From: Escherichia coli
GTDB lineage: Bacteria > Pseudomonadota > Gammaproteobacteria > Enterobacterales > Enterobacteriaceae
Reading direction: 5' to 3' (one strand)
DNA: 64,000 nt
Assembly (NCBI RefSeq): GCF_030013205.1
Contig: NZ_CP122648.1
Position 1 is the first letter of the stretch, and each line of letters begins with the position of its first letter. A program made the position numbers and the translations under genes. The notes under the pieces were generated by a model. That model was given only the letters and a program-made list of their open reading frames with translations. It made no database searches and was not told the origin of the DNA. Of the stretch, positions 6,994-49,031 are shown one piece after another.

Positions 6994-7419
6994 TTAGCGT
7001 GGTAAGATCTGTGTAGTTTTCTGGATGCTTTCAGTAAATAGTAATGAATTATCAAAGGTATAGTAATATCTTTTTTGTTCGTGGATATTTGTAACCCACC
7101 GAAAAACTCCTGCTTTAGCAAGGTTTCTTCTGTATTCCTGAAATGTGATCTCTCTGGATTTCAGCTTATTAGAGGTCGTTTCTATAAGATGCCTATCCTT
7201 TGAAAATTTGACAGACACAATGTTTTTTAGGCCCTTTAATAACACTGTATTATCATTTTTTAATACAATATGAACATTCTCTGTGGCTAAATAGTAAATG
7301 TAATGTGAGACATTGTGACGTTTTAGCTCAGAATAAAACCATTGATAGTTTAAATCGTTTCGAACTTTATCAAATATTTGTTTAAAAATGACTACCTGAT
7401 CCATAGATAAACCTTCCAT
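6994..7419 (-). CDS. ydfO: DUF1398-family prophage protein
   Basis: 141 aa ORF (alternative start at 7404 gives 136 aa); co-directional with and immediately downstream of the ribbon-helix-helix gene. Confidence 0.7.
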
Positions 7420-7461
7420 GTGATATGAGGGGGCGTAGTCTGCACGATTATCTAAATTGCT

Positions 7462-7695
7462 TCAATCTGGTCTGACCTGTTTTCTGAGCAATTCAGTAAT
7501 GTCACTCTTTTCTTTGTTTGCTTCAGAAGAAACTCTTTTTTCTGAGCACAGTCTCCGGCGGCAGGCTTCAATGACCCAGGCTGAGAAATTCCCGGACCCT
7601 TTTTGCTCAAGAGCGATGTTAATTTGTTCAATCATTTGGTTAGGAAAGCGGATGTTGCGGGTTGTTGTTCTGCGGGTTCTGTTCTTCGTTGACAT
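7462..7695 (-). CDS. ynfO: Small ribbon-helix-helix-like DNA-binding protein
   Basis: 77 aa; segment RNIRFPNQMIEQINIALEQKG...NFSAWVIEACRRRL fits a beta-strand plus two helices as in Arc/CopG-type proteins. Confidence 0.6.
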   Translation of the reverse strand: MSTKNRTRRTTTRNIRFPNQMIEQINIALEQKGSGNFSAWVIEACRRRLCSEKRVSSEANKEKSDITELLRKQVRPD

Positions 7696-7799
7696 GAGGT
7701 TGCCCCGTATTCAGTGTCGCTGATTTGTATTGTCTGAAGTTGTTTTTACGTTAAGTTGATGCAGATCAATTAATACGATACCTGCGTCATAATTGATTA

Positions 7800-8083
7800 T
7801 TTGACGTGGTTTGATGGCCTCCACGCACGTTGTGATATGTAGATGATAATCATTATCGCTTTACGGGTCCTTTCCGGTGATCCGACAGGTTACGGGGCGG
7901 CGACCTCGCGGGTTTTCGCTATTTATGAAAATTTTCCGGTTTAAGGTGTTTCCGTTCTTCTTCGTCGTAACTTAATGTTTTTATTTAAAATACCCCCTGA
8001 AAAGAAAGGAAACGACAGGTGCTGAAAGCGAGCTTTTTGGCCTCTGTCGTTTCCTTTCTCTGTTTTTGTCCGTGGAATGAGCA
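7800..8083 (+). other. Lambda-type cos site (cosQ/cosN/cosB); cosN 12-nt cohesive-end sequence GGGCGGCGACCT at 7895..7906
   Basis: The sequence around 7881-8083 matches the recalled junction of the lambda right and left ends (..TCCGACAGGTTACG | GGGCGGCGACCTCGCGGGTTTTCGCTATTTATGAAAATTTTCCGGTTTAAGG..), followed by the Nu1-like gene. Confidence 0.75.
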
Positions 8084-8629
8084 ATGGAAGTCAACAAAAA
8101 GCAGCTGGCTGACATTTTCGGTGCGAGTATCCGTACCATTCAGAACTGGCAGGAACAGGGAATGCCCGTTCTGCGAGGCGGTGGCAAGGGTAATGAGGTG
8201 CTTTATGACTCTGCCGCCGTTATAAGATGGTATGCCGAAAGGGATGCTGAAATTGAGAACGAAAAGCTGCGCCGGGAAGTTGAAGAACTGCGGCAGGCCA
8301 GCGAGACAGATCTCCAGCCAGGGACTATTGAGTACGAACGCCATCGACTTACGCGTGCGCAGGCCGACGCACAGGAGCTGAAAAATGCCAGAGACTCCGC
8401 TGAAGTGGTGGAAACCGCATTCTGTACTTTCGTGCTGTCGCGGATCGCAGGTGAAATTGCCAGTATTCTCGACGGGATCCCCCTGTCGGTGCAGCGGCGT
8501 TTTCCGGAACTGGAAAACCGACATGTTGATTTCCTGAAACGGGATATCATCAAAGCCATGAACAAAGCAGCCGCGCTGGATGAACTGATACCGGGGTTGC
8601 TGAGTGAATATATCGAACAGTCAGGTTAA
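8084..8629 (+). CDS. nohA: Terminase small subunit (lambda Nu1 homologue)
   Basis: 181 aa MEVNKKQLADIFGASIRTIQNWQEQGMPV..., essentially lambda Nu1 with a winged-HTH N-terminus. Confidence 0.85.
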   Translation: MEVNKKQLADIFGASIRTIQNWQEQGMPVLRGGGKGNEVLYDSAAVIRWYAERDAEIENEKLRREVEELRQASETDLQPGTIEYERHRLTRAQADAQELKNARDSAEVVETAFCTFVLSRIAGEIASILDGIPLSVQRRFPELENRHVDFLKRDIIKAMNKAAALDELIPGLLSEYIEQSG

Positions 8630-10088
8630 CAGGCTGCGGCATTTTGTCCGCGCCGGGCTTCGCTCACTGTTCAGGCCGGAGCCACAGACCGCCGTTGAAT
8701 GGGCGGATGCTAATTACTATCTCCCGAAAGAATCCGCATACCAGGAAGGGCGCTGGGAAACACTGCCCTTTCAGCGGGCCATCATGAATGCGATGGGCAG
8801 CGACTACATCCGTGAGGTGAATGTGGTGAAGTCTGCCCGTGTTGGTTATTCCAAAATGCTGCTGGGTGTTTATGCCTACTTCATAGAGCATAAGCAGCGC
8901 AACACCCTTATCTGGTTGCCGACGGATGGTGATGCCGAGAACTTTATGAAAACTCACGTTGAGCCGACCATCCGTGATATTCCTTCGCTGCTTGCGCTGG
9001 CCCCGTGGTATGGCAAAAAGCACCGGGATAACACGCTCACCATGAAGCGTTTCACCAATGGTCGTGGCTTCTGGTGCCTGGGCGGTAAAGCGGCAAAAAA
9101 CTACCGTGAAAAGTCGGTGGATGTGGCGGGTTATGATGAACTTGCTGCTTTTGATGATGATATTGAACAGGAAGGCTCTCCGACGTTCCTGGGTGACAAG
9201 CGTATTGAAGGCTCGGTCTGGCCAAAGTCCATCCGTGGCTCCACGCCCAAAGTGAGAGGCACCTGCCAGATTGAGCGTGCAGCCAGTGAATCCCCGCATT
9301 TTATGCGTTTTCATGTTGCCTGCCCGCACTGCGGGGAGGAGCAGTACCTTAAATTTGGCGATAAAGAGACGCCGTTTGGCCTCAAATGGACGCCGGATGA
9401 TCCCTCCAGCGTGTTTTATCTCTGCGAGCATAATGCCTGCGTCATCCGCCAGCAGGAGCTGGACTTTACTGATGCCCGTTATATCTGCGAAAAGACCGGG
9501 ATCTGGACCCGTGATGGCATTCTCTGGTTTTCGTCATCCGGTGAAGAGATTGAGCCGCCGGACAGTGTGACCTTTCACATCTGGACGGCGTACAGCCCGT
9601 TCACCACCTGGGTGCAGATTGTCAAAGACTGGATGAAAACGAAAGGGGATACGGGAAAACGTAAAACCTTCGTGAACACCACGCTCGGTGAGACGTGGGA
9701 AGCGAAAATCGGCGAACGTCCGGATGCTGAAGTGATGGCAGAGCGGAAAGAGCATTATTCAGCGCCCGTTCCTGACCGTGTGGCTTACCTGACCGCCGGT
9801 ATCGACTCCCAGCTGGACCGCTACGAAATGCGCGTATGGGGATGGGGGCCGGGTGAGGAAAGCTGGCTGATTGACCGGCAGATTATTATGGGCCGCCACG
9901 ACGATGAACAGACGCTGCTGCGTGTGGATGAGGCCATCAATAAAACCTATACCCGCCGGAATGGTGCAGAAATGTCGATATCCCGTATCTGCTGGGATAC
10001 TGGCGGGATTGACCCGACCATTGTGTATGAACGCTCGAAAAAGCATGGGCTGTTCCGGGTGATCCCCATTAAAGGGGCATCCGTCTAA
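8604..10088 (+). pseudogene. Terminase large subunit (lambda gpA homologue), N-terminal 494 codons only; truncated by an internal prophage deletion
   Basis: GTG start overlapping nohA; protein matches the recalled lambda gpA N-terminus up to ...[10 protein letters not shown], then a stop. Lambda continues YGKPVASMPRKRNKNG, which is absent here. Confidence 0.8.
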
Positions 10089-10149
10089 GGGACGCTTCCT
10101 GAACAACATTAACGCGGTCAGTAAAACAGACTTTGCTGATAAGCGTGGT

Positions 10150-11904
10150 ATGCGTTATGTGCGGGTTAACGCTCCTGCAGGTGCAACATCTGGAAAATAT
10201 TACCCTGTTGTTGTTATGCGTTCTGCTGGCTCAGTAAGCGAACTGGCATCAAGGGTCATTATCACCACGGCACCGCGAACCGCAGGCGATCCGATGAATA
10301 ACTGCGAGTTTAACGGATTTGTTATGCCTGGTGGCTGGACTGACAGGGGGCGTTATGCTTATGGAATGTTCTGGCAATATCAAAACAATGAACGAGCCAT
10401 CCACTCAATAATGATGAGTAATAAGGGCGATGATTTGCGCTCTGTGTTCTATGTTGATGGCGCTGCTTTCCCTGTTTTTGCGTTTATCGAAGATGGCCTG
10501 TCAATATCCGCACCTGGTGCTGATCTCGTTGTTAATGATACGACCTATAAGTTTGGGGCAACAAATCCAGCGACTGAATGTATCGCGGCGGACGTTATCC
10601 TTGATTTTAAGAGTGGGCGTGGTTTTTATGAGTCTCATTCGTTAATCGTTAACGATAACTTGTCGTGCAAAAAACTTTTTGCCACAGACGAAATTGTAGC
10701 GCGTGGTGGTAATCAGATTCGAATGATAGGTGGGGAGTATGGTGCATTATGGCGTAATGATGGCGCTAAAACTTACCTGCTGCTTACCAATCAAGGTGAT
10801 GTTTATGGTGGCTGGAATACATTAAGACCGTTTGCTATTGATAACGCAACCGGCGAACTGGTTATTGGAACCAAACTGTCCGCAAGTCTGAACGGTAATG
10901 CATTAACAGCAACAAAGCTGCAAACGCCAAGACTGGTTTCTGGTGTTGAGTTTGATGGTTCCAAAGATATTACTTTAACCGCCGCGCATGTGGCTGCTTT
11001 TGCCAGAAGGGCAACGGATACATATGCCGATGCGGATGGTGGCGTTCCCTGGAATGCCGAATCAGGCGCTTACAATGTCACCCGCTCTGGCAACAGCTAT
11101 ATTCTGGTTAACTTCTATACCGGAGTCGGAAGTTGCCGGACATTGCAGATGAAGGCGCATTACAGAAATGGAGGTCTGTTCTACCGTTCCTCAAGAGATG
11201 GCTATGGTTTTGAGGAAGACTGGGCAGAAGTTTATACCTCGAAAAATCTTCCACCAGAAAGCTACCCAGTCGGTGCACCAATCCCGTGGCCATCAGATAC
11301 CGTTCCGTCTGGTTATGCCCTGATGCAGGGGCAGACTTTTGACAAATCTGCTTACCCGAAACTTGCAGCCGCTTATCCGTCAGGCGTGATCCCTGATATG
11401 CGTGGCTGGACGATTAAGGGCAAACCTGCCAGTGGTCGGGCCGTATTGTCTCAGGAACAGGACGGCATTAAATCGCACACCCACAGCGCCAGCGCATCCA
11501 GTACGGATTTGGGGACGAAAACCACATCGTCGTTTGATTACGGCACTAAATCCACGAATAACACCGGGGCGCATACCCATAGTGTTAGCGGTACGGCTGC
11601 TTCAGCCGGTGCACATACCCATTCGATAACATTTGTTTCAGGTGGCACCAAAGGTGCTCCGGGAAGTGGATCACCTGATTATTCTAAATACAGTGTTAAC
11701 ACTTCTTCTGCAGGCGCTCATACGCACTCTGTATCGGGTACTGCTGCAAGCGCAGGTGCACACGCACATACTGTAGGTATTGGTGCGCATACGCACTCGG
11801 TTGCGATTGGTTCACATGGACACACCATCACCGTTAACGCTGCTGGTAACGCGGAAAACACCGTCAAAAACATCGCATTTAACTATATTGTGAGGCTTGC
11901 ATAA
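10150..11904 (+). CDS. stfQ: Side tail fibre protein fragment (Stf-like C-terminal region)
   Basis: 584 aa ORF with repeated GAHTHS motifs near the C-terminus, typical of lambda Stf / T-even long-tail-fibre tips; followed by a Tfa gene; upstream end abuts the terminase deletion junction. Confidence 0.6.
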
Positions 11905-12479
11905 TGGCATTCAGAATGAGTGAACAACCACGGACCATAAAAATTTATAATCTGCTGGCCGGAACTAATGAATTTATTGGTGAAGGTGATGCATATATTC
12001 CGCCTCATACAGGTCTGCCAGCAAACAGTACCGATATTGCACCGCCAGATATTCCGGCTGGCTTCGTGGCTGTTTTCAACAGTGATGAGTCATCGTGGCA
12101 TCTCGTTGAAGATCATCGGGGTAAAACGGTTTATGACGTGGCTTCCGGCGACGCGTTATTTATTTCTGAACTCGGTCCGTTACCGGAAAATGTTACCTGG
12201 TTATCGCCGGAAGGGGAGTTTCAGAAGTGGAACGGCACAGCCTGGGTGAAGGATACGGAAGCAGAAAAACTGTTCCGGATCCGGGAGGCGGAAGAAACAA
12301 AAAACAACCTGATGCAGGTAGCCAGTGAGCATATTGCGCCGCTTCAGGATGCTGCAGATCTGGAAATCGCAACGGAGGAAGAAATCTCGTTGCTGGAAGC
12401 ATGGAAAAAGTATCGGGTATTGCTGAACCGTGTTGATACGTCAACTGCACAGGATATTGAATGGCCAGCACTGCCGTAG
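11904..12479 (+). CDS. tfaQ: Tail fibre assembly protein (Tfa family)
   Basis: 191 aa; start overlaps the stf stop; conserved Tfa C-terminal region. Confidence 0.8.
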
Positions 12480-12576: not shown

Positions 12577-13167
12577 TTATATGTCAGGTGTCTGAAGTTT
12601 TGCTTTGGCTCTTAAAATGGTTTGCCGCGAGGTTTTGAATTCCCGGGCAATGGCACTTATACTTACACCTGACTTAATTCGTTCGAATACCGCCTGTTTC
12701 TGTTCTTCATTTAACACAGGTGGTCGACCAAAACGTTTCCCTGCGCCGCGGGCACTTACTATCCCGGAATGAGTGCGTTCAAGTAAAAGGTCTCGTTCAA
12801 ATTCAGCGACTGCTGAAATTACTTGCATCATCATTTTTCCTGTTGGACTGGTCAGGTCAATGCCCCCCAATGCTAAGCAATGCACTCTGATACCTGTTTC
12901 GGTCAGTTGTTCCACTGTTTTCCTGATATCCATTGCATTACAACCAAGGCGATCCAGTTTTGTCACAATCAATTGATCACCACATTTCAGGCGAGCAAGC
13001 AACCGGTTAAAACCAGGACGCTCACTGGTTGCTGCTGAGCCGCTAATGTGTTCTTCGATTATTTGCTGAGGTTTGATTTTAAAACCTGCACTTTCGATTT
13101 CCCGGCGTTGATTTTCGGTGGTCTGATCCAGCGTTGATATCCGACAGTAAGCAAAAATTCGAGACAT
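12577..13167 (-). CDS. pinQ: Serine recombinase / DNA invertase (Pin family)
   Basis: 196 aa; N-terminal resolvase catalytic domain (YCRISTLDQ with catalytic Ser) and C-terminal HTH; convergent with tfa. Confidence 0.8.
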
Positions 13168-13717: not shown

Positions 13718-14502
13718 GAAGATATTCCTTAAAATATTATTGATTTTCATTGCGATATTGTATGTCTGATTCAGGATATGTTGACTTATACATCGGTTTT
13801 GTCTGGGTTATTGGATATGCCAATCCCTAATTTTATTAGGGCATGACTAAAAATGCTGAATATGATAAGGAGAGATGTGATTATCAGTATGCTGTTCATA
13901 TAGCCTCGAATTAGTAATGTGTTATATATGATATAGTTGACAATTTTTATCTTGGGTGTTCTTAAAGTTCGTAGATAAACATTGTCGTTTCAGGTATACA
14001 GGAATGCTAACAGGTGGCAGCAAAAATCAGGCGGTTTATGGCGCAAGCTGAAGCGGCAACTGCAAACTATCTTATGCAGAGACTCTACACGGATTGGGTT
14101 TAAAAGTATACATAGATAACAGTTTTTATCTGAAAAAGAAAAATATCAAGGTGATATAGCCTATATGCCTTTGATGCGGAGGAATGAATGTGATGGGAGT
14201 GATGTATCTGAATAGTTGAAAAACCGCAGACACGCCTTATGCAAGAACGTGCTGCGGTTGGCTGGTAAATTTTTCGATAGTGTGAGTATTGAATGATTTC
14301 CAGCCGTTCTTGATTTTACGCATAAATCCATGAAAAAACTACTTATCTGTTGGGGAGTTTTTTTGGGGCATATATGGGACAGAAATAGGCCCCAGATAGA
14401 CACTGAGATCGAACTTAGGATGCTTTTTAAAAAATGCAACTATCTGAAAAAACCTAGAAAACGCCAAGGAAACCACAGGATGGGAAAAAACACCTGTGAA
14501 TT

Positions 14503-15786
14503 ATGGATTTCCAGTTATATTCGCTCGGCGCAGCGTTAGTGTTTCATGAAATATTTTTTCCTGAATCATCAACGGCAATGGCGTTAATTCTGGCAATGGG
14601 AACCTACGGTGCAGGTTATGTGGCGCGTATTGTCGGAGCATTTATTTTCGGCAAAATGGGCGACAGAATCGGGCGTAAAAAAGTGCTCTTTATTACCATC
14701 ACTATGATGGGGATCTGTACTACCTTAATTGGTGTGCTGCCGACCTATGCACAAATTGGTGTGTTTGCGCCAATTTTGCTGGTGACGCTGCGTATTATTC
14801 AGGGGCTGGGGGCAGGCGCGGAAATTTCCGGTGCCGGCACGATGCTGGCGGAATATGCACCAAAAGGTAAGCGCGGAATTATCTCCTCATTTGTTGCTAT
14901 GGGGACTAACTGCGGAACCTTGAGCGCAACGGCAATCTGGGCCTTTATGTTCTTCATTCTCAGTAAAGAGGAACTGCTTGCGTGGGGATGGCGTATACCG
15001 TTCCTGGCGAGCGTTGTCGTGATGGTCTTTGCTATCTGGTTGCGTATGAATCTGAAAGAAAGCCCGGTCTTTGAGAAGGTTAACGACAGCAACCAACCGA
15101 CAGCAAAACCTGCACCTGCTGGTAGCATGTTCCAGAGCAAATCCTTCTGGCTGGCAACAGGGCTGCGTTTTGGTCAGGCTGGTAACTCCGGTTTAATTCA
15201 GACTTTCCTTGCAGGCTATTTAGTGCAGACGTTATTGTTTAACAAAGCAATTCCAACAGATGCATTGATGATCAGTTCGATTCTCGGCTTTATGACCATT
15301 CCGTTCCTTGGTTGGTTATCCGATAAAATAGGTCGCCGGATCCCGTATATTATTATGAATACCTCTGCGATTGTGCTGGCGTGGCCAATGCTTTCTATCA
15401 TCGTAGATAAAAGCTATGCCCCGAGCACCATTATGGTTGCACTGATTGTGATTCATAACTGTGCGGTGCTGGGATTATTTGCTCTGGAAAACATTACCAT
15501 GGCAGAAATGTTCGGCTGTAAAAACCGCTTTACCCGGATGGCGATTTCTAAAGAAATTGGTGGTCTTATCGCTTCCGGTTTTGGTCCTATCCTGGCGGGT
15601 ATTTTCTGCACCATGACGGAATCCTGGTATCCGATCGCCATTATGATCATGGCATATTCAGTGATTGGTTTAATCTCTGCGCTGAAAATGCCAGAAGTGA
15701 GAGACCGTGATTTAAGTGCACTGGAAGATGCCGCGGAAGATCAACCGCGTGTTGTAACAGCTGCGCAACCTTCAAGAAGTCTGTAA
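14503..15786 (+). CDS. ydfJ: MFS metabolite:H+ symporter-family transporter, apparently N-terminally truncated by the prophage insertion
   Basis: 427 aa polytopic membrane protein starting in what looks like the first transmembrane helix (MDFQLYSLGAALVFHEIFFP); an in-frame stop lies immediately upstream; a phage non-coding region precedes it. Confidence 0.7.
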   Translation: MDFQLYSLGAALVFHEIFFPESSTAMALILAMGTYGAGYVARIVGAFIFGKMGDRIGRKKVLFITITMMGICTTLIGVLPTYAQIGVFAPILLVTLRIIQGLGAGAEISGAGTMLAEYAPKGKRGIISSFVAMGTNCGTLSATAIWAFMFFILSKEELLAWGWRIPFLASVVVMVFAIWLRMNLKESPVFEKVNDSNQPTAKPAPAGSMFQSKSFWLATGLRFGQAGNSGLIQTFLAGYLVQTLLFNKAIPTDALMISSILGFMTIPFLGWLSDKIGRRIPYIIMNTSAIVLAWPMLSIIVDKSYAPSTIMVALIVIHNCAVLGLFALENITMAEMFGCKNRFTRMAISKEIGGLIASGFGPILAGIFCTMTESWYPIAIMIMAYSVIGLISALKMPEVRDRDLSALEDAAEDQPRVVTAAQPSRSL

Positions 15787-33035: not shown

Positions 33036-33470
33036 TTACGGCAGGACTTTCTTAAGCAAATGCTCAAGTGTTGCCACTTCGTCCGCGGTCAGGTTTTTTG
33101 TTAATTCTTGATGCAGGTCCTGGCCAACTAATTGATGGCATTGTTCACATATTGCCGCGCCGCTGGTGGTAAGTTTTACCAGTACGCCGCGCTTGTCATT
33201 CGGGTTCGGCAACCTTTCCACCCAGCCTTTACAGACCAGGCGATCCAGCATACGGGTCAGCGCCCCCAGGTCGACCGATAACACTCTTTTCAGTTCAACC
33301 GGAGTAATACACGCCGCGCAGCGGATAGAGCAGAGCACCTTAAACTGTGCCGCGGTAATATCCAGCGGAGACAGATACTCGTTAAGCAGGCGATCTTTCT
33401 TCTGATTAACCATATGGATTAAGCGACCCAATGGAATAATTTCATTGAACAGATCGCTGGTACTTTTCAC
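33036..33470 (-). CDS. marR: MarR-family repressor MarR
   Basis: 144 aa winged-helix protein upstream of marA in the same operon. Confidence 0.9.
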
Positions 33471-48038: not shown

Positions 48039-49031
48039 TTATGGCAATGGGTTATTGGCCCGACGCGCCAGCCACTCTTTAATTTGCTGGCGATGCAGGC
48101 TAACGGAACGACCTACGACAACGACGATAAGTAGCGCACCGGAAAGGGCGCTGGACACCTGATTTGGCACTCCTGCCATTTGCAAACCTTGTTGCAAATA
48201 TCCCACTAATAAAACCGCAATGGCGGTGCCGATAATGGAACCGGAACCACCATAAATATTGGCACCGCCAAGCACCACGGCGGTGATGGCGGGCATCAGA
48301 AACGACGCACCGAGATCGGAACGTGCTGAACCAAAATACGACACCAGCAGCACAGCGGCGACCGCAGACGCCAGCCCCGTCATGGCATAGAGCGCACATA
48401 AGGTACGGTTAACTGGAATCGCGCTATAAAGCGCCACGCGCGGGCTTTGCCCAATCAAAAACACGTTACGTCCGGCATGGGTTTTATGCAGCCAGAGCCA
48501 GAAAACGAGGAGACATATCAGGAAGATAATCAGCGGAACGGGGAGTCCCAGTACATCCAGGTTAGCGAAATCTGTAAACGCCATCGGGAATCCACCAATA
48601 CCTTCGTACCCCGTCGCTCCGGCCATCCCGGAAAGCAGCAGGGCACTTCCGGCAAACAGATACAGCGTGCCAAGCGTAATCACCAGCGGGTTAACTTTGG
48701 TATAGATAATTAATCCGGCGTTGATCAGCCCGCACAATGCGCCGAGCAGTAAGGTCAGAAGAATCGCCAGCGGCATCGGCACACCACTTTGAAACAGTAC
48801 GCCCAATGCAATGGCGCAGAGGCCGATAGTCGAACCAAACGAAATATCGATCCCGCCACTGACAATCACCATCGTCAGCGGTAGGGCGACAATGCCAATG
48901 CAAATAAAGTCACTGGTGCTGAACAGCAACATATTGAGATCTAACATCCGCGGGTTAATTGCACCAAATGCAACAATCTCAATAACGAGCAGTGCGGCAA
49001 GAGCCAGTTCCCAACCGTAGCGAATACGCAT
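48039..49031 (-). CDS. lsrD: AI-2 ABC transporter permease
   Basis: 330 aa membrane permease. Confidence 0.85.

Follow-up and report, generated by a model that had tools for sequence, protein, structure and literature searches.

The feature described here belongs to a class that is already known: cryptic lambdoid prophages of Escherichia coli, Qin and DLP12 among them, have long been known to carry a lambda-like cos together with a homologue of Nu1. Lambda qin derivatives probably carry the cos of Qin. Of 5,426 complete E. coli genomes, 4,592 (85%) have a lambda-type cos region of this kind, with a median of two copies per genome. During lambda packaging, the small terminase subunit TerS binds cosB and the large subunit TerL nicks cosN, and the terminase-bound cosB end is translocated (PMC4669245). 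The third subsite, cosQ, is the packaging-termination signal (PMC4669245), and cos terminases require a downstream cosQ-cosN for termination (PMC4669245, PMC8575938). That a helper terminase can package from the cos of a repressed or partial prophage is experimentally established, and helper phages have been shown to package passive prophage DNA from chromosomal cos sites, partial prophages included, if a second cos follows, at ~0.7-2 particles per cell (PMC4669245).

Exchange between such prophages and lambda has been described as well. DLP12 carries a patch of 3.3-3.5 kb around cos that is 98% identical to lambda (PMC3945230, PMC545071). Recombinants between lambda and DLP12, nu1 replacements included, were shown to be viable, and 10 of 19 junctions adjoined cos (PMC3945230). 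Qin is inserted at the 5' end of ydfJ, occurs in about half of E. coli strains and ranges from 11 to 97 kb (PMC6379469).

Two further systems invite comparison with the locus described here. PICIs of the EcCICFT073 type resemble it in having no morphogenetic genes, in their lambda-like cosQ and cosN and in needing a helper terminase (PMC6739421, PMC9026076). PICIs, however, excise and replicate, have unit length and use Rpp to redirect TerS to a cosB that is not of the lambda type, whereas the present locus is a grounded prophage with an authentic lambda-type cosB and no annotated satellite functions: its annotation includes many pseudogenes and no integrase or excision function of its own, no replication module and no Rpp. 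Lateral transduction by pac phages (S. aureus phages, P22) has in common with it the in situ start and polar packaging into host DNA (PMC8575938). The headful terminases of pac phages can end packaging with no second site; cos terminases cannot, and the DNA analysed here is without a downstream cos.

In the window, a stretch of 64,000 nucleotides of DNA from a porcine lineage of E. coli, cos lies in the right arm of Qin, a cryptic prophage integrated at ydfJ. The insertion at the 5' end of ydfJ and the gene order expected of Qin were both found, and the gene order and ydfJ boundary of K-12 Qin match those of the window. The 7.5 kb around cos match a set of porcine ETEC/O139 chromosomes at 100% identity. 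In the RefSeq annotation of an identical genome, the left part reads ydfU-quuQ(ydfT)-cspF-cspB-essD-ydfR-rrrQ-rzpQ-cspI-…-gnsB-ydfO-ynfO and the right part, beginning with cos, nohA-A'-stf'-tfaQ-pinQ-ydfK-ynfT-ydfJ'. Directly upstream of cos lie ydfO (DUF1398; 6994-7419, RefSeq CDS 6994-7404) and ynfO (DUF3950; 7462-7695), both on the minus strand. Downstream, on the plus strand, are stf' (10088-11904), a tail fibre gene without its N-terminus, and tfaQ (11904-12479), both annotated by RefSeq and carrying Pfam tail-fibre domains; they are followed by the RefSeq-annotated pinQ (12577-13167, minus strand). The right end of Qin lies at approximately 14511, where the 61-mer spanning the K-12 Qin boundary maps to 14481-14541. 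It adjoins a truncated ydfJ, annotated without its N-terminus, 6.6 kb downstream of cosN.

The 12-mer GGGCGGCGACCT is located at 7895-7906 on the plus strand and is the sole match with at most one mismatch in the whole window. The bare 12-mer is weak evidence, with at least one match at this tolerance in 21 of 100 shuffles; it is the sequence context that decides for a cos. Positions 7533-10090 are collinear with lambda 48141-48502 joined to 1-2197, free of rearrangement, with 42 substitutions and one 1-bp deletion (~98.3% identity). An earlier reading made from the letters of this DNA (the sequence-only reading) had proposed that its claim of an intact lambda-type cos in a defective prophage be checked by alignment with the ends of the lambda genome, and the alignment bears the claim out: cosQ, cosN, I2, R2 and R1 are identical to lambda, the arrangement cosQ-cosN-I2-cosB is kept, and the head and tail genes are deleted.

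Subsites were taken as a 7-bp cosQ; a cosN of 12 bp plus two flanking bp on each side; I2 as bp 18-50; R3 as bp 50-65, with TerS contacts at bp 55-63; and a cosB in the order R3-I1-R2-R1 with R2 inverted (PMC4669245, PMC4856287, PMC9026076). All of them were located on the plus strand. The cosQ (GGGTCCT, 7865-7871) corresponds to lambda 48473-48479, and its spacing to cosN is exactly that of lambda. By the 16-bp definition, cosN (CGGGGCGGCGACCTCG, 7893-7908) carries the conserved CG dinucleotides at both nick sites, which are predicted at 7894/7895 on the top strand and 7906/7907 on the bottom strand. I2 (7912-7944), 100% identical to lambda, is the essential bent spacer that leads from cosN to cosB (PMC4856287). 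The distance from cosN to R3, in which 3-bp changes are deleterious (PMC4856287, PMC9026076), is unchanged from lambda, with no indel in between. The lambda-type cosB spans 7944-8059 (subsites per PMC9026076). Its R3 (7944-7959) is one base off lambda (C53T at 7947), outside the TerS contact segment bp 55-63 (7949-7957), which is identical. The I1 interval (7960-8002) carries A73G at 7967 and T102C at 7996 and encloses an IHF-like core (7973-7985) identical to lambda. The inverted R2 (8003-8018) and R1 (8044-8059) are separated by an interval with one missing base (ΔG138, between 8031 and 8032). The R2/R1 inverted repeat was also recovered by independent detection, and an Rfam scan of 7300-8700 returned only sub-threshold 'miRNA' hairpin matches on it. 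Two further differences from lambda flank these subsites, A48466G at 7858, 7 bp left of cosQ, and A188G at 8081, beside the nohA start. The start codon of Nu1/nohA is placed relative to cos as in lambda.

With cosN, cosQ, I2 and its spacing, cosB and variants compatible with function all present, the site would be a member of the lambda-type cos group. The predicted functional cos covers ~7865-8059 and is enclosed by the interval 7800-8083 that had been singled out before. It resembles the cos of lambda in its subsites and in their order, orientation and spacing, and differs from it by the four changes in the cosB interval together with A48466G and A188G. It also differs in its setting, as the cos of lambda sits in a replicating concatemer and that of the window in the chromosome beside a broken terminase gene.

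The gene that follows, nohA (8084-8629, plus strand), encodes an intact terminase small subunit of 181 aa, a Nu1 homologue (Pfam Phage_Nu1, E=2e-101). NohA differs from lambda Nu1 solely at K48R, A75T and L132I. None of the three changes falls in the recognition helix (17-24), in the wing (31-39) or in the TerL-binding tail at the C-terminus (PMC9026076), so that the DNA-binding and TerL-binding regions are identical to those of Nu1. The 181-aa product would be expected to fill the place of TerS in a functional lambda terminase. Downstream, A' (8604-10088, plus strand) is a truncated pseudogene of the terminase large subunit, 494 aa long, whose stop was created at a deletion junction. At this junction, between CATCCGTCTA and AGGGACGCTTCC (10087/10088), codon 494 of A runs into an internal part of the side-tail-fibre gene, and the microhomology amounts to no more than 2 bp. 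The succession of cos, a lambda-like Nu1 gene and an N-terminal fragment of gpA had been recognised correctly by the sequence-only reading; its assignment of the endonuclease to that fragment was wrong and is corrected here. TerL is laid out with the TerS-binding part and the ATPase motor at the N-terminus and the endonuclease, coiled coil and portal tether at the C-terminus (PMC4669245, PMC4856287, PMC9026076). Codon by codon, A' shows 22 synonymous and no non-synonymous differences from lambda, and its protein matches gpA 1-494 at 100% identity. Pfam places a whole GpA_ATPase at residues 47-285 and GpA_nuclease at residues 322-493, the latter covering only profile positions 2-177 of 294. Ending at residue 494 of 641, A' has lost ~40% of the nuclease domain, the coiled coil and the portal-binding tail; its TerS-binding and ATPase part is complete, and ~60% of the nuclease domain remains. 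The nuclease being truncated, the locus cannot cut its own cos, and cleavage would need the terminase of a helper phage; the dependence on a helper proposed before was right, as the retained gpA fragment is without a complete nuclease domain.

Deletions in Qin vary by strain and include A'1170::tail', A'1233::capsid', A'1464::lom', A'1482::stf' and nohA'::stfQ'. The fourth is that of the window and of its sister strain ETEC6333, the last that of K-12.

The sequence-only reading had named mismatches to lambda within cosN or cosB as what would refute it. There are none in cosN. In cosB, C53T, A73G, T102C and ΔG138 do formally trigger this condition, but they make no valid refutation because the same variants co-occur in viable phages and are frequent in natural lambda-type cos sites. 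Phages 1H12, Lambda_4B5 and Lambda_ev245, whose deposited linear genomes start at the same cosN, combine C53T, A73G, T102C, ΔG138 and A188G; they also carry T85A, where the window is lambda-like. A viral contig collection was then scanned with the invariant cosN-I2 45-mer, which gave 116 readable loci, 84 with a lambda-type cosB and 32 pairing the same cosN-I2 with another cosB type. The deletion ΔG138/137 is present in all 84 lambda-type cosB loci; it is therefore the lambda reference itself that is the outlier at bp 138. Among the same 84 loci, A73G occurs in 59, T102C in 55 and C53T in 14, five of which adjoin a full-length A gene. The core haplotype C53T/A73G/T102C/Δ138 was present in four surveyed loci (one with a full-length A); no phage haplotype among the surveyed loci combined all the variants of the window, A48466G and A188G included. 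The cosQ was unchanged in 112 of the 116 loci. A was truncated in 11 of 42 assessable loci, and a good cos beside a broken terminase is therefore common. By its sequence, the cos of the window is indistinguishable from working lambda-type cos sites, and departures from the lambda reference say little about whether a cos functions.

In K-12, the same module is found in two cryptic prophages, Qin and DLP12. K-12 Qin is like the window in its ydfJ locus, gene order and flanks, and its ydfO-ynfO and nohA sequence is identical to that of the window up to the point where the K-12 deletion starts. This deletion sets in where nohA ends, so that the NohA of K-12 has a changed C-terminus (189 aa) and A' is missing altogether; the window, by contrast, retains 1.48 kb of A and 1.8 kb of stf. 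Its cosB represents a different natural haplotype (G54A, G134A, T145G and T176G). These differences were considered as signs of decay, and this was rejected, the haplotype being widespread and found also beside full-length A. In DLP12 (nohD), the cosB haplotype is that of the window except for T85A and for A187T beside the Nu1 start. DLP12 likewise combines an intact Nu1 homologue with a truncated A (aaaD). It differs from the window in its site, argU, in an A remnant of only ~0.3 kb and in its sequence left of cosN, where a different haplotype shows 12 differences from the window in 7819-7878.

The history of the locus can be read most directly from ETEC6333, in which the deletion junction is identical to that of the window. 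Recurrent formation of this junction was rejected: with only 2 bp of microhomology, it must have been inherited and not formed twice. The two copies show no differences over cspI-ynfO (~1.9 kb) or over stf'-tfaQ (~2.4 kb), and all of their 92 differences are confined to 7878-10034. The ETEC6333 block has a different cohesive end, GGGCGGAAGGCG, with 13 amino acid changes in NohA and 8 in A'. Since other Qin copies carry the nohA of the window type (0-2 nt differences) and that of ETEC6333 is ~46 nt from each, the ETEC6333 allele is the imported one. Its NohA is RefSeq protein WP_000453567.1, which also serves as TerS in pAH01-1, a circular phage-like replicon of 46.9 kb; a search of the ETEC6333 genome found no resident donor or second copy of the patch. 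In a three-way comparison, the left crossover fell in the 14-bp segment CGGGTCCTTTCCGG (7864-7877), which contains cosQ, and the right crossover within the last 53 bp before the junction. Comparison of these sequences makes it clear that, in ETEC6333, a foreign phage allele took the place of the block from cosQ to the junction when the prophage was already defective. This replacement is the natural mirror image of laboratory lambda acquiring DNA from a defective prophage.

The window itself carries the trace of a second, short patch, which likewise is a clear case of replacement in an already defective prophage. Its Qin differs from that of K-12 at 7 of 1,713 positions, and six of the seven lie in 7947-8081, the cosB region, where the window has the DLP12/1H12-type haplotype. 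Judged against other Qin copies, the cosB of the window is this patch, starting within ~50 bp of cosN. Edges at cos may reflect exchange started by cleavage, or assimilation of the whole shared block as with annealing-type recombinases (PMC3945230). For ETEC6333, the left edge may mark the limit of homology and not cleavage, because the homology of a pAH01-1-type donor to Qin begins only at cosQ.

From these observations, the Qin cos is best explained as an intact passive substrate for a terminase acting in trans, of which recombination, not transduction, is the realistic consequence; we give this reading a probability of roughly 0.7. When a phage with lambda packaging specificity grows, its TerS would bind R3, R2 and R1, with IHF at I1, and the bound TerS would position TerL so that cosN is nicked. 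The terminase-bound end would move rightward, in the plus direction, through nohA, A', stf', tfaQ and pinQ, and would enter host DNA after 6.6 kb. The block from cos through nohA to A' is homologous to that of passing phages and would be exchanged in both directions, which may keep the module 'fresh' and feed phage mosaicism. Helper-mediated cleavage of the window cos is plausible because its sequence falls inside the range of functional sites, with intact specificity determinants, and because packaging by a helper from a prophage cos is established (PMC4669245). Cleavage in vivo, and cleavage as the initiator of the exchanges, we infer. One observation from ETEC6333 counts against this best explanation: the long tract lies on the cosB side, which is thought to be protected by terminase (PMC3945230).

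It has to be considered whether the site is instead an inert fossil, left by a recent deletion, not yet decayed and never used, its patches being ordinary homologous recombination that ends at the edge of shared sequence. The absence of non-synonymous changes in A' and the 0-2 nt differences in nohA among Qin copies do suggest little time since inactivation, the homology of the pAH01-1-type donor starts exactly at cosQ, and no cryptic-cos packaging signal was reported from the sequencing of lambda particles (PMC7667829). Yet the sequence competence of the site is complete, and use in trans of a prophage cos by a helper has been established with lambda (PMC4669245). In the work of De Paepe et al., junctions close to cos predominated even though homology reached far to either side (PMC3945230), and the cosB patch of the window starts ~50 bp from cosN although DLP12/1H12-type homology runs more than 300 bp further left. 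An unused fossil is accordingly an improbable account of the locus, though one to be kept in mind. The cos could also be a self-renewing entry point for recombination, at which terminase cuts the chromosomal site and phage-templated repair repeatedly overwrites cos-nohA-A'. If true, this would explain why cos and nohA are intact and mosaic in most E. coli after the loss of structural genes, and the ETEC6333 replacement and the short cosB patch of the window would be two footprints of cleavage-driven overwriting. We put this forward tentatively and consider it rather doubtful.

The sequence-only reading had gone further in another direction and suggested that an orphan cos could allow transduction of adjacent host DNA, that is, a cos-type lateral transduction in which a helper packages and transduces the host chromosome from ydfJ' through mar to lsr. 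Packaging in the plus direction would run, all within one headful, through 6.6 kb of Qin, then ydfJ', ydfI, rspR, ydfG, dcp, dgcZ, eamA and a PTS cluster, and further on through marRAB, sad, glsB and the lsr operon. The annotation of K_EC180 shows marR frameshifted; it is intact in the window, which therefore derives from a sister strain. One lambda headful from 7895 would comprise the 6.6 kb of Qin and ~31-44 kb of host DNA, so that marRAB and the lsr operon would be reached. Sternberg and Weisberg reportedly described, in 1975, 'doc' particles with host DNA packaged from a prophage cos. Packaging is, moreover, polar from cosB (PMC4669245). Termination, however, needs a downstream cosQ-cosN (PMC4669245, PMC8575938), and a search that included relaxed patterns found no second cos, whether in the 56 kb downstream or in the rest of the window; a co-oriented cosQ-cosN at ~78-105% of lambda length downstream, as a cos-to-cos platform would have, is absent. 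Each of the 15 porcine genomes with an identical cos has a single lambda-type cos. Neither generalized nor lateral transduction is considered possible for lambda (PMC8575938), and in purified lambda particles from a K-12 lysogen host reads came almost solely from att-lambda and its ~25-kb flanks (PMC7667829). This lysogen carries the cos of both DLP12 and Qin, yet no cryptic-cos signal was reported (PMC7667829), which means that packaging from a cryptic cos is rare or that its particles are unstable. Transduction of adjacent host DNA is in consequence poorly supported. Packaging from the Qin cos would not be properly terminated, there being no downstream cosQ-cosN, and mature transducing particles would not be expected. 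Because cos terminases need a second cos and none lies downstream, productive transduction of host genes from the window cos is unlikely, and a cos-type lateral transduction of the ydfJ'-mar-lsr region is very unlikely indeed.

A last possibility is that the module has been selected for a function in the host, either as a decoy or poison for an incoming lambda-type terminase, made of an intact TerS and a nuclease-dead TerL still able to bind TerS, or as a regulator linked to FNR. The reading frames of nohA and A' are intact, several independent Qin deletions drop the nuclease end of A and keep cos and nohA, and, as noted above, 85% of E. coli genomes carry a lambda-type cos. An FNR-type palindrome, TTGATGCAGATCAA, lies upstream of cos and nohA at 7756-7769 as the single perfect match in the window, and the same 24-mer is an FNR target validated by ChIP and EMSA upstream of nohA/nohB in K-12 (PMC1802558). 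Against a regulatory role, promoter activity upstream of nohA is low and FNR-independent in K-12 (PMC1802558). A promoter and terminator scan of 7400-8300 gave nothing above shuffled expectation. The endpoints of the A-gene deletions were considered as the outcome of selection against the nuclease; this was set aside, since the query required A' and the view of the deletion pattern is biased by that ascertainment. The signal of purifying selection is explained by the time before the deletion, and A' is lost altogether in K-12 Qin. PADLOC, run on NohA, A', YnfO and YdfO, gave one domain-level HTH match (mad1), in NohA, which was rejected as a sign of defence, and no defence-family match beyond this generic HTH. 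Selection for a host function is highly improbable.

To conclude, exchange of Qin and DLP12 with lambda has already been measured experimentally, and the locus has little value as a discovery. Its value is as a clean natural case in which the packaging module of a grounded prophage was replaced by a foreign phage allele after the structural genes had been lost. For sequencing of lambda-type lysates and for cos-based tools in wild E. coli, at least one competent chromosomal cos would have to be expected. For the biology of E. coli and its phages, the finding bears on defective prophages as both reservoirs and recipients in phage mosaicism.

Comparison of the Qin prophage in the window with that of K-12 (L007) localizes most of their divergence to a single element. 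The two copies differ at seven positions over 1.7 kb, and six of the seven fall inside 135 bp of cosB (window 7947-8081), where the window carries the haplotype of the K-12 prophage DLP12 and the viable lambdoid phage 1H12. A second lambda-type cos, a possible donor of this cosB, was absent from the genomes matching the window.

A larger replacement was found in ETEC6333, a sister strain with a Qin deletion junction identical to that of the window. In its Qin locus, the whole block spanning cosQ to the junction (L132 2079-4235, equivalent to window 7878-10034) has been replaced by a foreign phage allele, and both sides of the import are 100% identical to the window. The imported block has the cohesive end GGGCGGAAGGCG, and its NohA is identical to the TerS of pAH01-1, a 46.9-kb replicon. 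In the window, marR (33036-33470) is intact, with an ORF of 144 codons. The marR gene of K_EC180 is annotated as frameshifted, although this strain is otherwise identical around cos; thus, the window comes from a sister strain.

The internal deletions of Qin differ among strains 1303, GmM062, ET490 and K-12. In all four copies the left end falls inside gene A or where nohA ends, and cos and nohA are kept. This pattern may reflect ascertainment bias because the search query contained the truncated gene A'. Right of the window's own deletion, the pinQ invertase gene (12577-13167) adjoins a truncated tail-fibre gene and a tail-fibre assembly gene (10088-12479). Other phages have such a gene arrangement in their invertible host-range segments.

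In resequenced K-12 colonies, NohA R48K/R70L and NohD K48R were reported as SNPs (PMC11297538). These changes coincide exactly with the differences between the paralogs NohA (nohA, window 8084-8629) and NohD, which suggests that reads cross-mapped between the two cos-noh regions or that gene conversion took place between them.

To the left of cos, a perfect FNR-type palindrome, TTGATGCAGATCAA (window 7756-7769), is located 125 bp from cosN. In K-12, the same 24-mer upstream of nohA and nohB was shown by ChIP and EMSA to be an FNR target, with transcription little affected (PMC1802558). At the palindrome, lambda has the identical sequence in the aligned segment; this host-regulator site therefore belongs to the conserved region upstream of cos.

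The lambda reference has an extra G at bp 138, between R2 and R1 (between window 8031 and 8032), that none of the 84 natural lambda-type cosB sequences in the survey contains. The outlier is the laboratory lambda reference, not the prophage. Among the viral-contig loci, the exact lambda cosN-I2 45-mer is joined to a quite different cosB in 32 of 116, and these cosB types represent other packaging specificities. Such combinations illustrate modular exchange directly to the right of I2.
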